A stretch of 64,000 nucleotides of DNA from an uncultured delta proteobacterium (lineage in GTDB: Bacteria > Myxococcota_A > Polyangia > Polyangiales > Houyiibacteriaceae), in the NCBI GenBank assembly GCA_963699755.1, contig CAVOVB010000001.1:384001-448000 (forward strand). Direction: 5' to 3'. Shown in pieces: positions 56,570 through 63,969 of the stretch (position 1 is its first letter; each line of letters starts with the position of its first letter). A program made the position numbers and the translations under genes. Under the pieces are notes generated by a model. The model had not been told where the DNA came from. It did no database searches and saw only the letters and a list, made by a program, of their open reading frames with translations.

Positions 56570-57110
56570 CGCGGGGAGGCGTTGTCATCCATCCGCTGGC
56601 GAGGCAGATCGCGCAGCGGTGCAAGGAGAAGCTCCTCGAATCGTCCGAGAGGTGACGCTCGGCCCAGGTACGAAAGACCTTCGCCAGCGCTGGAGGTGCC
56701 GCTCACGGACCTCTTCGCGAGCTGGCTGGCAGCGATGGGAGCCGAGGTGTCGAAGGATACCGTCCGCTGCTGGGAGACGTACGCAGCCGCTCATTTCATC
56801 CCGTTCTTCGAAACCTGTTGGGCACCAAACCAGCGATTCCGAGGATTCCGAGACGCGCTACCGGTACGGCCCATCCGAAGGGGAAGCGCGAGACGGTTAC
56901 GCTGACGCCGGAGGAAATGGACGCCATCGTGGCTCAGCTCCCAGAGCGTTCGAAGCTCGGCTATCCGATGCGGGCGTACTACGAGGTGGTGCGAGAAACG
57001 GGGCTTCGGCCTTCGACGCGCAGCATTGGAGGCTAGTCTCAAGGAGTACGAGCCGCAATACATCAACGCACGCTCATTTCGACATGCCGCGGTGACCGAC
57101 ATGACGGTGA
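56570..57110 (+). pseudogene. Tyrosine integrase relic (multiple deletions)
   Basis: LTPEEMDAI...ETGLRPS box I; ~65 bp nearly identical to 52177-52243 (RSFRHAAVT). Confidence 0.7.
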
Positions 57111-57161
57111 CACGAACGATTTCTGCGAGGAGGACGAGAGCACTAGCTCGTTGAAATCGCA

Positions 57162-57183
57162 GCGGAGGCGGTGGGAATCGAAC
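57162..57183 (-). other. tmRNA/tRNA 3'-end-like att scar
   Basis: Reverse complement GTTCGATTCCCACCGCCTCCGC. Confidence 0.5.
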
Positions 57184-58059
57184 AGCCGGGAGCTCGCCCG
57201 ATTCCGACGTTTCTCGAACGGTTTCGCGGACAGGTATCGATGAGAACTGGACTTCCCCCGCCCCTGTAGACACCTCGAAGCCAAACGCGAGGTGCTTAAG
57301 CTTCGAGCCGAGCTTCGGCGCGCGCAAGAAGAGCGGGACATATTAAAAAAGCCGCTGTGTACTTTGCGCGAGAGCCCGAGCAAAGTACGCATTCATCGAA
57401 GCGCACCGCAAGGAGCACCGCATCCAGACGATGTGCCGGGTGCTCGGCGTGGCGCGCAGCGGGTTCTACGCCTGGCTTCATCGGCCGCTGTCGGATCGAG
57501 CGCGGCAGGACGGCCGTTTGCTCGAGCTCATTCGCGCCTCGTGGTTTGCGAGCGGGGGTATCTATGGGAGCCCCCGCATGTGGGGCGACCTTCGCGAATC
57601 GGGCGTTCGGTGCAGCAAGAAGCGCATCGCCCGCATCATGAGAGAGCACAAGATCCGGGCCATTCGTGGCTACAAGCGCCCGCGTCACCGCCCTGGGCGT
57701 CCCGCCGCACTCGCACCCAATCGGTTGCAGCAGCAGTTCACGGTGAGCCGTCCCGACGAAGCCTGGGTGACCGACATCACCTACCTCCGCACATGGCAAG
57801 GGTGGCTCTACTTGGCCGTCGTGATCGACCTCCACTCGCGCCGCGTCGTCGGATGGTCGATGAAGTCGTCGCTACACCGCGAGCTCGTACTCGATGCGCT
57901 CTTGATGGCGGTGTGGCAGCGCAAGCCTCGGCAGCACGTCATCGTGCATTCCGATCAAGGCACGCAATACGGCAGCGATGAGTGGCAGCGTTTCTGCCGA
58001 GCGCACCGGCTCACCACGAGCATGAGCCGCCGCGGCAACTGCTACGACTGTGATGATGC

Positions 58060-58290
58060 TTGGACGCCGATCGATCCTCTGGAAAGATCGTCGTGGTCGT
58101 TGCTTCGGGTGATCTGACCCTTGCTATGATCGACCTTGGGTGTCCTGGCGTTGACGTGTCGGTCACCCGCAAGCAGCGGCGTATCCTTACCAGCCAGGCG
58201 GGTCGTGACCTCATAGGAGCCTGAATACTTCGGTCCCATCACAGTCCTGTCCTTCCTCGTCTGACCGGTGAGTTCAACCACTGACCGGAA
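58060..58290 (+). ncRNA. Predicted IS110 bridge RNA
   Basis: Two stem-enclosed loops: TGCTATGA/GGCGTTG (target) and ATAGGAGC/CATCACAG (donor). Confidence 0.75.
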
Positions 58291-58301
58291 GGAATACCTG
58301 C

Positions 58302-59381
58302 ATGCCAAGCGTCTCGCCGAAGCCCACCGAAATCATCGTGGGCGTGGATACACACAAGCACCAACATGTCGCATTCGCGATCGATGGACTGGGCCGCGTC
58401 GCCGCCGAGCCTATCACGATTCCCGCAACGGGGGCCGGCTATGCCCAACTGCTTGCATGGGCCGATGCGCTGGGCACCGTTCACGCCTTTGGGGTGGAGG
58501 GTTGTGGCTCCTACGGAATCGGTCTGGCACGCTTCCTTCGGCGCCATGGTCGTAGTCTGCAAGAGGTCGCTCGCCCTGTTCGCCGAGGGGAGCGTCGAAA
58601 GTCTGGAAAGAGCGACGCGATCGATGCCGAACATGCCGCACGCACCATCCTCACCAGCACAGGAACTGCGACTCCAAAGCTCGCGAACGGTCCTGTGGAG
58701 GCGCTCCGACTCATCAAAATCGCCCGAGATACAGCGGTGAAAGCGCAGTCGATGACCATGATCACGCTCAAGGCCATGGTCGTCACAGCGCCCAGCGGGT
58801 CGCGCGAACGAATCGAGCCGCTCAACAACCACCAGCTCGTCCTGGCATGCTCCGCTCTCGATTCGTCGGAGGCAGTGTCCGACCCCGAAGTCGCCGTCCG
58901 GTACGCACTCGGTGCGCTCGGCCGCCGGTGGCTACAACTCCACGAGGAGATCAAGACGCATACCGCTTATCTCAAGGAGCTCACGCGAGCGTCGGCGCCG
59001 GAGCTGGTCGACACGTTCGGAGTCGGGTTCGACAGCGCAGCCGAGTTTCTCATCGCGGCCGGTGACAATGCCGACCGTATTCGTTCCGAAGCGGCTTTCG
59101 CCAAGCTCTGCGGAGCATGTCCGATCCCCGCAGGGTCGGGCATGACCAACGGTCGTCATCGTTTGAACCGAGGCGGTAATCGCCAAGCCAATGCCTCACT
59201 CTATCGAATCGTCATCGTCCGGATGCGCTGGCATCCCGCCACCATGGCGTACGTCGAACGCCGCACTGCCGAAGGTTTGTCGAAGAAGGAGATCATTCGT
59301 TGCCTCAAGCGTTTCGTCGCTCGGGAGATCTATCGCCTCCTGCCAAGACCAAGTTCTGCGAGTCTGCCAAAAGCCGCCTAG
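58302..59381 (+). CDS. IS110-family DEDD recombinase
   Basis: GVDTHK, GVEGCGSYG, GKSDAIDA, PAGSG, RLNRGGNRQAN. Confidence 0.95.
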   Translation: MPSVSPKPTEIIVGVDTHKHQHVAFAIDGLGRVAAEPITIPATGAGYAQLLAWADALGTVHAFGVEGCGSYGIGLARFLRRHGRSLQEVARPVRRGERRKSGKSDAIDAEHAARTILTSTGTATPKLANGPVEALRLIKIARDTAVKAQSMTMITLKAMVVTAPSGSRERIEPLNNHQLVLACSALDSSEAVSDPEVAVRYALGALGRRWLQLHEEIKTHTAYLKELTRASAPELVDTFGVGFDSAAEFLIAAGDNADRIRSEAAFAKLCGACPIPAGSGMTNGRHRLNRGGNRQANASLYRIVIVRMRWHPATMAYVERRTAEGLSKKEIIRCLKRFVAREIYRLLPRPSSASLPKAA

Positions 59382-59712
59382 CCTCCTTGACATCTATAGG
59401 AGCATCAATGCGGTCGCCGAGTCGTTTTTCAGCAGCTTGAAGAAGGAACGGATTCGAAGGAAAATCTACAGGACCCGGGCCGAAGCCCGGGCCGACGTGT
59501 TTGACTACATCGAGGTCTTCTACAATCGAAAGCGGCGGCACAGCCACATCGGAGACATGAGTCCGGCGGCCTTCGAGGCCGTCCTCAGCAACCCTAGCCG
59601 GGTGTCTACGGAAGCGGGGTAAGTCCAGCAACCCTAGCCGGGTGTCTACGGAAGCGGGGGAAGTCCATTTCGACGCGTATTTGACGCGCACTTGGTGAAG
59701 ACCCTCATGTGC

Positions 59713-61152: not shown

Positions 61153-61245
61153 TCGTGCCCCATGAGCCGCTGGGCTCCGTTCCCCTCCCATGCCCTCAGT
61201 CTAACGGGTGATAGATCTGCCTCGCAAAACTGGGCAGGTCTTTGT

Positions 61246-61283
61246 GAGCTCATCACCCAAAGGTCGCCGGTTCAAATCCGGCC
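61246..61283 (+). other. Degenerate tRNA-Met(CAT) 3' part
   Basis: GAGCTCATCACCCAAAGGTCGCCGGTTCAAATCCGGCC; no acceptor end. Confidence 0.6.
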
Positions 61284-61531
61284 TTTTCGGCACTTGCTGT
61301 CTCCTGCTGGCGAAAAACACGCTGCCAAAGCTGAGCTCGTTGAACGGCGTTCGGAAATGGGAAGCAGACGAAGGAGATCCGACCGACGTTGACGGAAGCG
61401 AAGGCCGATGGGAGGGCTAAGCACCAAGCCGTCGTGAGCCGACCGGGCACCCGAGTTGCTCGGCGAAAGCCCTCCCAGCCTCGTTGCCGGCGGCGTTAGT
61501 GCTGATTCGGGCGCATATGGGAGAGCTGGCA

Positions 61532-62474: not shown

Positions 62475-63969
62475 TGTACGTCATCAGAGTATTTCGGAGA
62501 AGAGGGCATGTTTGTTAAGAGACGGTTCGTGGTTTTGACCTAGGCCGCGTTTGCGGCCCGGTACTCCTTTTTGCGACGCTGCATCGTAAGCTGCTTGATC
62601 TTGTCCCGTTCGGATAGGACCCGGTGGCGCCGGCCGTAGTACACGTCGGCCGGCGTGCAGTTGTCGAGCGACTCGTGGTAGCGGCGATGGTTGTAGTAGG
62701 CGACGAAGTCGCGCACCGCTGCCTCCAGCTCCCACGGGAAGTAGTAGTGCTGTAGCTTCACGACGTTCTTCATCGAGCGGTGGTAGCGCTCGATCTTCCC
62801 CTGCGTTTGCGGGTGGTACGGGCGGCCTCGGGTGTGCGTCATGCCCTGCTCCTGCAGGTAGCTCTGCAAGTCCTTCGATACGTAGGCCGGTCCGTTGTCG
62901 CTCAGGGTCTCGGACGATGGCGCACTCGCACGCTCTGTACTCCGGTGAGCGCCAGTGCTTCGTCGAGCGTCTCGGTCACGTCCGTGGTCGCCATCGTCGG
63001 GCCCAGTTTGTAGGCGAGGATGAAGCGCGAGAAGTCATCCATCACCGTCGACAGGTAGTACCAGCCCCAGCCGACGACCCGCAGGTACGTGAAGTCGGTC
63101 TGCCACATCTCGTGTACCCGCTTGGTCGGATGCTTGAAGCGGTCCGACGCGCTCATCAGGACGTACGCCGGGCTCGTGATCAGATCGGCGGCCTTGAGGA
63201 TGCGGTAGACGCTCGATTCGCTCGGGAAATACTGGCGCTCATCGATGAAGTGGCACGCGAGCTCCCGGGCTGAAAGCTCCGTCTTTTTGAGGGCCAAATC
63301 GATCACCTCGGCCCGGACCTTCTCGGGGACTTGGTTCCATCTCGGACGCGGCGGCGGCGTCTTGTCTTGCAGGGCATCGAATCCACCGTCGACATACCGC
63401 TTGTACCGGCTGTAAGAGGTGCTCGATGGGATGCCAGTTGTCGCAGCGTGACCCGTACCGGCAAGTCGGTGCGCTCGGCCATGTCAATCAGCTCCATCTT
63501 CTCGGATGCACTGCGTCTCATGTGCCGTCCTTGTCGCCATGACCCATCAGACTTTTTTTGAGCACACGGTTCTTGAGCGTCATCTCCGCGACGACCTCCT
63601 TGAGCTCACTGTTTTCGGTTCGCAGGTTCTTGACCTCGGTGATCGTCGCCTCCCGCACCGTGTCGCCGCTCAGCTGCTTCTTACCGGCCTCCAGGAAGTC
63701 CTCGCTCCAGCGGTAGTACAGATTCGCGGCGATACCTTCGCGTCGGCACAACTCGGCCACGCTGACCTCACTGCGCAGGCCGTCGAGCACGATCCGGATC
63801 TTTTCTTCCGCAGAAAACCTCCGGCGCGTCTTGCGACGGATGTCACGCACGGCGGCCTCACTCGAAGCGTTTCTCTCTTCTCGGCATGGGACACTCCTCA
63901 GCAGGGCTCTCGCCCTCGGCACAGTGTCTCTTAACTCAGAGCCCTTTTGTCTCCGAGTTCTTCTGACGG
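62475..63969 (-). mobile_element. IS3-family element, full length but frameshifted (sister of 8597-9840)
   Basis: Same orfA/orfB and ends as 8597-9840; orfB broken into several frames. Confidence 0.92.

Follow-up and report, generated by a model that had tools for sequence, protein, structure and literature searches.

ISEc21 of E. coli was published as targeting the second catalytic Asp of IS3 (Siddiquee et al. 2024, PMC11187229), and the available part of that paper describes an element that needs a non-coding RNA, can be reprogrammed through the loops of this RNA and belongs to a cluster whose recombinases measure 345-385 aa. For IS621, the available sections of PMC11208158 and PMC13626964 describe a CT core, 3' of which both strands are cut, and, following each right guide, two handshake bases that pair with the incoming strand. 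ISAar16 and ISAar18 of Arthrobacter lie near ISEc21 in the accessible portion of the source matrix of the seekRNA paper; they are reported in the available text of PMC2991359 as inserted within other IS elements, and one or the other may already represent in ISfinder the x-Y-D|N-A site described below. No paper on this site was found in the literature, and ISfinder, figures and some supplements may list it. Neither IS3 nor ISEc21 is mentioned in the main text of Durrant 2024 (PMC11208160), the main text of the language-model preprint holds no mention of IS3, and the accessible part of PMC2516522 is uninformative on x-Y-D|N-A.

The window, that is, the whole stretch of 64,000 nucleotides that was analysed, very probably carries a bridge-recombinase element of the IS110 family and ISEc21 type, with an RNA directed at (T)(G)YTAYGA-C-AAYGC, the x-Y-D|N-A codons before the catalytic Glu of IS3-family transposases. 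Its anatomy and boundaries, the guide matches, the covariation of the stems and of guides with targets, and the recurrence of the site were read from sequence. The features are the following.

57247..58048, plus strand: left part of the host IS3, with the left inverted repeat, a 3' remnant only of orfA, and OrfB up to CYD (inverted repeats, translation, Pfam)
58040..58048, plus strand: left target half and core C, codons C-Y-D of the IS3 OrfB (sequence)
58049..59406, plus strand: IS110-family element of ISEc21 type, 1,358 bp including one shared C at the right end (junctions, empty-site joint in run X2, single genome copy)
58052..58057, plus strand: predicted -10 box GATGAT of the circle-junction promoter (a G-x-x-x-A-T hexamer in 47 of 47 distinct junctions)
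58096..58180, plus strand: target-binding loop domain, with a long outer stem, an internal loop and a 3-bp inner stem (fold, stem covariation)
58122..58129, plus strand: left target guide TGCTATGA, pairing with the 8 bases ahead of the core on the bottom strand (guide-flank matching)
58148..58153, plus strand: right target guide GCGTTG, pairing with the top-strand core C and AAYGC (guide-flank matching)
58154..58155, plus strand: putative handshake dinucleotide AC of the target loop, whose A could pair with the donor T at -1 after strand exchange (AC in 60 of 60, the extraction pattern allowing AC or AT; model from the available part of PMC11208158)
58213..58220, plus strand: left donor guide ATAGGAGC (matches 59396-59403)
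58237..58244, plus strand: right donor guide CATCACAG, about 6 nt of it consistently paired (covaries with the left end)
58245..58246, plus strand: TC, the putative handshake dinucleotide of the donor loop, which complements the target GA at -2,-1 (TC/GA in 59 of 61, the extraction pattern favouring TC)
58302..59381, plus strand: bridge recombinase, 359 aa, with D16/E66/D105/D108 (DEDD) and S279 of the SG motif (PF01548 and PF02371; 43% identity to TnpEc21 over 341 aa)
59387..59392, plus strand: predicted -35 box TTGACA of the circle-junction promoter (TTGAC in 42 of 47 distinct junctions; register as in ISEc21)
59396..59406, plus strand: left donor (8 nt), two further bases and the core C (sequence)
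59407..59411, plus strand: right target half, codons N-A of the IS3 OrfB, four codons before the catalytic Glu (sequence, Pfam)
59407..59668, plus strand: right part of the host IS3, with OrfB from NAVAE to the stop at 59622 and the right inverted repeat twice (Pfam, inverted repeats)

The left junction reads TGCTACGA-C-TGTGATG, with the C at 58048, and the right junction ATAGGAGCAT-C-AATGCG, with the C at 59406; the length of 1,358 bp follows from this single C alone being common to both. The IS3 flanks read through in one frame (...GNCYD, then NAVAESFF...) and match Pfam rve/HTH_21 on the left and rve_2/rve_3 on the right. The empty form was found in two contigs of the public DNA run X2, which join 58047 to 59406 and skip 1,358 bases, one base fitting either side, and other contigs of the same run cover the filled junctions. 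Several features of the IS110 family are present: neither the junctions nor the empty joint show a target duplication beyond the one-C core, the non-coding ends have the long left and short right layout of the group (253 nt before and 25 nt after the open reading frame), and Pfam matches together with the residues give the pair of a DEDD RuvC-like domain and a C-terminal Tnp domain with the catalytic Ser. An earlier note on this DNA had described an intact IS110 inserted at C-Y-D-N-A of an IS3 OrfB, just before the catalytic Glu. The one-frame flanks, the Pfam matches and the empty joint bear out the insertion, an open frame retaining D16, E66, D105, D108 and S279 agrees with the word intact as far as sequence can tell, and the motifs, stem and junctions that it quoted were all correctly located. 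The Glu of NAVAE is taken to be the E of DD(35)E, by counting from HSDQG in the translation. No solved structure matched the recombinase by sequence.

The predicted circle-junction promoter, TTGACA-N17-GATGAT, had been correctly read at 59387-59392 and 58052-58057. Among the junctions of relatives, the spacing between the two boxes is 17 (12 cases), 18 (29) or 19 (1). No circle joint was seen in the public runs, searched as contigs, and the contigs of RNA run X17 cover short pieces only.

The host IS3 is a decayed element. The 5' part of its orfA is missing directly after the left repeat (57247-57400), the A-run near the end of orfA is one base too short for the expected frame, and a 40-bp tandem duplication at 59586-59665 doubles the right end. 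The host assembly holds no other copies of the IS110 element or of the host IS3, and no sister empty sites. The strict 14-mer target has no further copy in the 5.35-Mb genome, and the relaxed 12-mer has six unoccupied matches elsewhere in it; contamination of the genome by marker count is 9%. Among 200 other genomes of the order, a single match at E <= 1e-60 was found, with 47% identity and a right flank reading NAVAES, and this near-absence (one genome in 200, with a distant match) fits a horizontal arrival.

Other remains of mobile DNA lie nearby. A second, frameshifted IS3/IS481-like element without the target motif occupies 62540-63934 on the minus strand; it reads GKIERY at the equivalent place and carries no insertion there. 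On either side of the IS3, at 56680-57230 and 61230-61300, are gene fragments resembling integrases and two fragments resembling tRNAs, which suggest a decayed integration island; the integrase-like fragments were read by eye and have no Pfam match, and ARAGORN reports no tRNA.

When the bases of the non-coding end were shuffled 20,000 times, no shuffle gave the donor-guide pair, and the target-guide pair, with one mismatch in each guide, arose in 1.1%; the case for the target loop therefore rests on family evidence. Folding and covariation, which the earlier note had named as a check, favour the target-loop stems, with two-sided changes in 15 of 23 pairs across 42 sequences and 0 of 500 shuffles reaching this level, on a structure that was derived from the same sequences as were tested and so favours the result. 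Pairing was found in 95.5% of the target-loop cells, compared with 28-62% in slid controls. The left target guide previously proposed at 58122-58129 stands, whereas the right one, given as GGCGTTG (58147-58153), is really the 6-mer at 58148-58153, its seventh base being mismatched in 29 of 46 guide-flank pairs. The donor guides proposed at 58213-58220 and 58237-58244 were both confirmed, as they covary with the element ends: where the left donor guide varies to ATAGAAGC and ATAGGCGC, the right ends change likewise, and the A or G of the right donor guide tracks the T or C of the left end (A-guides with T in 12 of 12; G-guides with C in 45 of 50 and with T in 5). The outer stem of the donor loop folds in the window copy, and the consensus fold of relatives recovered the inner stem only. 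A 5' hairpin region of the non-coding end (alignment columns 14-50) seems dispensable, since it is missing in about one third of relatives.

Relatives were gathered from 61 genome loci and the best 80 of 106 metagenome loci. The counts cover 103 entries at an identity of at least 55%, the window included, and leave out loci of lower identity; L025, L035, L138 and L062 (<55%) were read by hand, as were 10 of 1,914 plasmid matches. These relatives span several phyla, mostly Actinomycetota but also Alphaproteobacteria and others. Among distinct junctions flanked by 20 bases or more, the window's own site included, the IS3 motif is found at 55 of 65 on the left and 56 of 68 on the right; the 10 left and 12 right junctions without it comprise some decayed IS3, some retargeted copies and some look-alike DNA. 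Of the flanks open for at least 20 codons, Pfam matched 33 of 61 on the left and 46 of 57 on the right. The 46 matches on the right start at rve_3 position 16, except one at 18, and many of the 28 left flanks without a match are short or frameshifted. The victim IS3s are diverse: in 49 right flanks, the ungapped identity over 35 residues has a median of 29%. Ahead of the cut, the codons (n=56) are SYD in 27, CYD in 9, CWD in 4, CFD in 3, CLD in 2 and single others in 11. Thus the prediction that relatives would be flanked by CYDNA of diverse IS3 held for the codon boundary, with a correction to the first residue, Ser-Tyr-Asp outnumbering Cys-Tyr-Asp by 27 to 9. On the sequences compared, the conserved part of the target is D|N-A-x-x-E, with the Cys excluded. 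With the same correction, the relatives support the proposal that an IS parasitises another IS family through its most conserved coding motif.

In ten plasmid loci (51-58% identity), both junctions lie at x-Y-D|N-A in five and one junction does so in three; one of the remaining loci has a non-IS3 right flank and one sits in an IS481-like motif. The guides retain the motif across recombinases that are only about 50% identical. A minority of copies with ordinary loops, for instance L078, L021, L110 and L126, sit at look-alike DNA without any sign of IS3, so it is the DNA motif that is read and not the identity of the IS3.

Some loci depart from this simple arrangement. The left and right flanks of L012, L085, L092, L103 and L113 seemingly come from different IS3 elements, through recombination between copies or misassembly, and some of these loci seem rearranged or misassembled. 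In L144, L146, L149, L154 and L063 the left part is interrupted or directly preceded by other IS, among them IS1380, IS30 and IS6, often with loss of the RNA region. At L138:1-1818, an IS110 of the same scaffold (46% identity) sits in a tnpB-like gene just before an IAVENL motif; its guides match both flanks, and the downstream part matches PF07282. At L152:1700-3240, another IS110 of this scaffold (48%) lies at the catalytic Glu, in a QTNGK/ERF motif of IS481-like type, with guides that fit and unexplained bases at the left junction.

The guides follow their own flanks. For the left guide, 339 of 480 positions are Watson-Crick matches to the copy's own flank, compared with 311.7 +/- 4.7 after permutation, a value reached in 0 of 20,000 permutations, which, like the Fisher values below, is overstated because the relatives are not independent. 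In L105 both guides have changed and match its non-IS3 flanks, L074 has a left guide exact to its own non-IS3 flank, and L004 has a right guide exact to its own non-IS3 right flank. Identical recombinase and guide occur in L096, L097 and L099 at three synonymous Ser-Tyr-Asp sites. It had been stated that all differences between guide and site fall at third codon positions. This is true of the window copy, where both differences inside the guides form wobble pairs at third positions and the remaining one lies outside the 6-nt right guide; across the family, mismatches fall elsewhere too. Non-wobble mismatches in 56 guide-flank pairs are common at -8 (20), -7 (15) and -4 (14), so the motif read is mainly Y-T-x-Y-GA-C-AAYGC.

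As an addition to the main model, the degeneracy of the guides may itself have been selected, a U in the left and a G in the right guide being kept opposite synonymous C/T so that one guide reads both spellings, much as a tRNA does by wobble. We give this about an even chance. Of 60 left guides, 44 carry U at -6 and 47 carry it at -3, although C is the base of 42 and 43 of the 60 targets at these two positions; 53 of 60 guides have C facing the invariant core C. The last base of such codons in the flanking IS3 is C in 644 of 787. At -3, C-guides are found on C targets only (12 of 12) and U-guides on C (31), T (9) and G (7) (p = 0.025); the right guide has G opposite the third base of the Asn codon in 45 of 46. 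At -6, however, there is no guide-target association of the kind seen at -3 (p = 1.0), and the G or A targets at that position, with the frequent mismatches at -8, -7 and -4, amount to a tolerance that is in large part plain laxity. The U may also come from a single ancestor, the tree being a quick one with many open forks, and at one third codon position the left guide of ISEc21 has C where its target has T. Wobbles do function in a relative, as U.G and G.T pairs support recombination by ISPpu10 in the available part of a preprint (10.64898/2026.03.19.712850). A structural need for U is not supported by folding, in which C versions of the left guide are equally or more open (unpaired mean 0.44 vs 0.34, 53 loops, free RNA).

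Left junctions read GA-C-T in 55 of 56 and right junctions have T before the C in 46 of 46, the donor base at -1 being T in 46 of 46; a two-base CT core of the IS621 type, shared by donor and target, is absent here. The earlier note rightly saw only one shared core base, as the C alone is common to donor and target. Its two-base reading, CT against CA, was not kept: in IS621 the cut falls 3' of the core, so that AC and TC are the pair to compare. Among the junctions examined, the -1 base of the donor is absent from every left junction and that of the target from every right junction, so the crossover is confined to the C, and a cut after this shared C would explain the one-base geometry. Since the extraction patterns favoured the expected dinucleotides, the distant relatives read by hand in which both sides have changed, TT/AA in L025 and L138 and GA/TC in L035, are the better evidence for a handshake; L152 was left out of this comparison because its left junction is ambiguous. 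The one-base core fits handshake pairing of the IS621 type.

By analogy with IS621 and ISEc21, the element would excise as a circle, and a promoter formed at the circle junction would drive the bridge RNA and the recombinase. The target loop would bind both strands of the IS3 motif and the donor loop the junction, the strands would be cut 3' of the shared C, and the two RNA bases after each right guide would pair with the incoming partner strand in a handshake, insertion being favoured over excision. Because the handshake bases would pair with the incoming strand, one shared base could suffice. Insertion would separate the Glu from the IS3 transposase, and the gain for the element is probably an abundant, mobile and dispensable landing site.

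The recurrence of IS3 sites could also arise if the element inserted at any matching 12-14-mer and only the harmless IS3 insertions persisted. Some relatives do sit at matching non-IS3 DNA, and the six relaxed 12-mers of the genome are unoccupied. We nevertheless consider this unlikely, given that the 5.35-Mb genome has no other strict 14-mer and that the guide has stayed on the motif across recombinases of only about 50% identity; such a bias would alter the share of off-target insertions and not the sequence of the guide. Much less probable still is a specificity coming mainly from the protein or from a local feature of IS3, with loop matches copied from flanks or ends: GA-C-A around the cut is nearly invariant in the close family and left-guide mismatches are frequent, but guides and flanks change together in L105, L074, L004, L138, L025 and L035, including the -2,-1 bases, and ISEc21 was reprogrammed through these very loops according to the available text of PMC11187229. 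An assembly artefact or chance nesting, which the 9% contamination and the decayed host IS3 might invite, is refuted by the filled junctions and empty joint of run X2, by L094 with the same left junction, and by the dozens of loci that repeat the site, with their junction counts and Pfam matches, and its probability is negligible.

With the RNA-guided reading thus preferred, the habit of ISEc21 is not a single case: a widespread sister group acts on a second active-site motif of IS3, and at x-Y-D|N-A the victim cannot easily alter its protein. A broader joint reading is possible, at somewhat less than an even chance, in which the ISEc21 cluster forms a wide lineage whose guide RNAs seek out the catalytic codons of other mobile elements (two IS3 sites, the IS481-like Glu, a tnpB gene), with guides selected to read a protein motif via U/G at synonymous positions and with a one-base core at which the handshake replaces core identity. 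If true, this use of the handshake would relax the constraint that the core places on bridge editing. The 60 guide-flank pairs constitute a natural data set for the mismatch and wobble rules of bridge RNAs, and the account of recombination with one shared base is testable and bears on bridge-editing design.

Compared with IS621, as described in the available parts of PMC11208160, PMC11208158 and PMC13626964, the element has the same two loops, the DEDD and catalytic Ser residues and the handshake logic, with left guides on the bottom strand and right guides on the top strand. In IS621 donor and target share the CT core; here the second of the two corresponding bases is the only shared one, and at the first the RNA carries a base suited to the incoming strand. 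The resemblance to ISEc21 is closer. The recombinase is 43% identical and of the same length, the RNA scaffold, the guide order, the 8-nt left guides and the 6-nt right target guide are alike, and both elements have a single shared C, a two-base gap from left donor to core, the same register of the junction promoter and an insertion after an Asp codon in an IS3 OrfB. The ISEc21 locus L062 itself shows the HSD|QG insertion with this scaffold, one shared C and the same promoter register. From the common scaffold, geometry and register and the 43% protein identity, the element would thus work like ISEc21 and belong with it, and membership of its cluster is indicated by the 359 aa, the identity, the scaffold and the one-base geometry. 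It is not ISEc21 itself, which is ruled out by the 43% identity and by a target other than HSD|QG, where the second catalytic Asp lies. In contrast to ISEc21, it lies at x-Y-D|N-A, 31 codons downstream and beside the catalytic Glu; all four guides differ, and the x-Y-D|N-A site is intact in L062. As the available text of PMC11187229 already reports the habit for ISEc21, this is not a new kind of parasitism. The mechanism and the strategy of an IS within an IS are known, and what is new is the target variant, the x-Y-D|N-A site.
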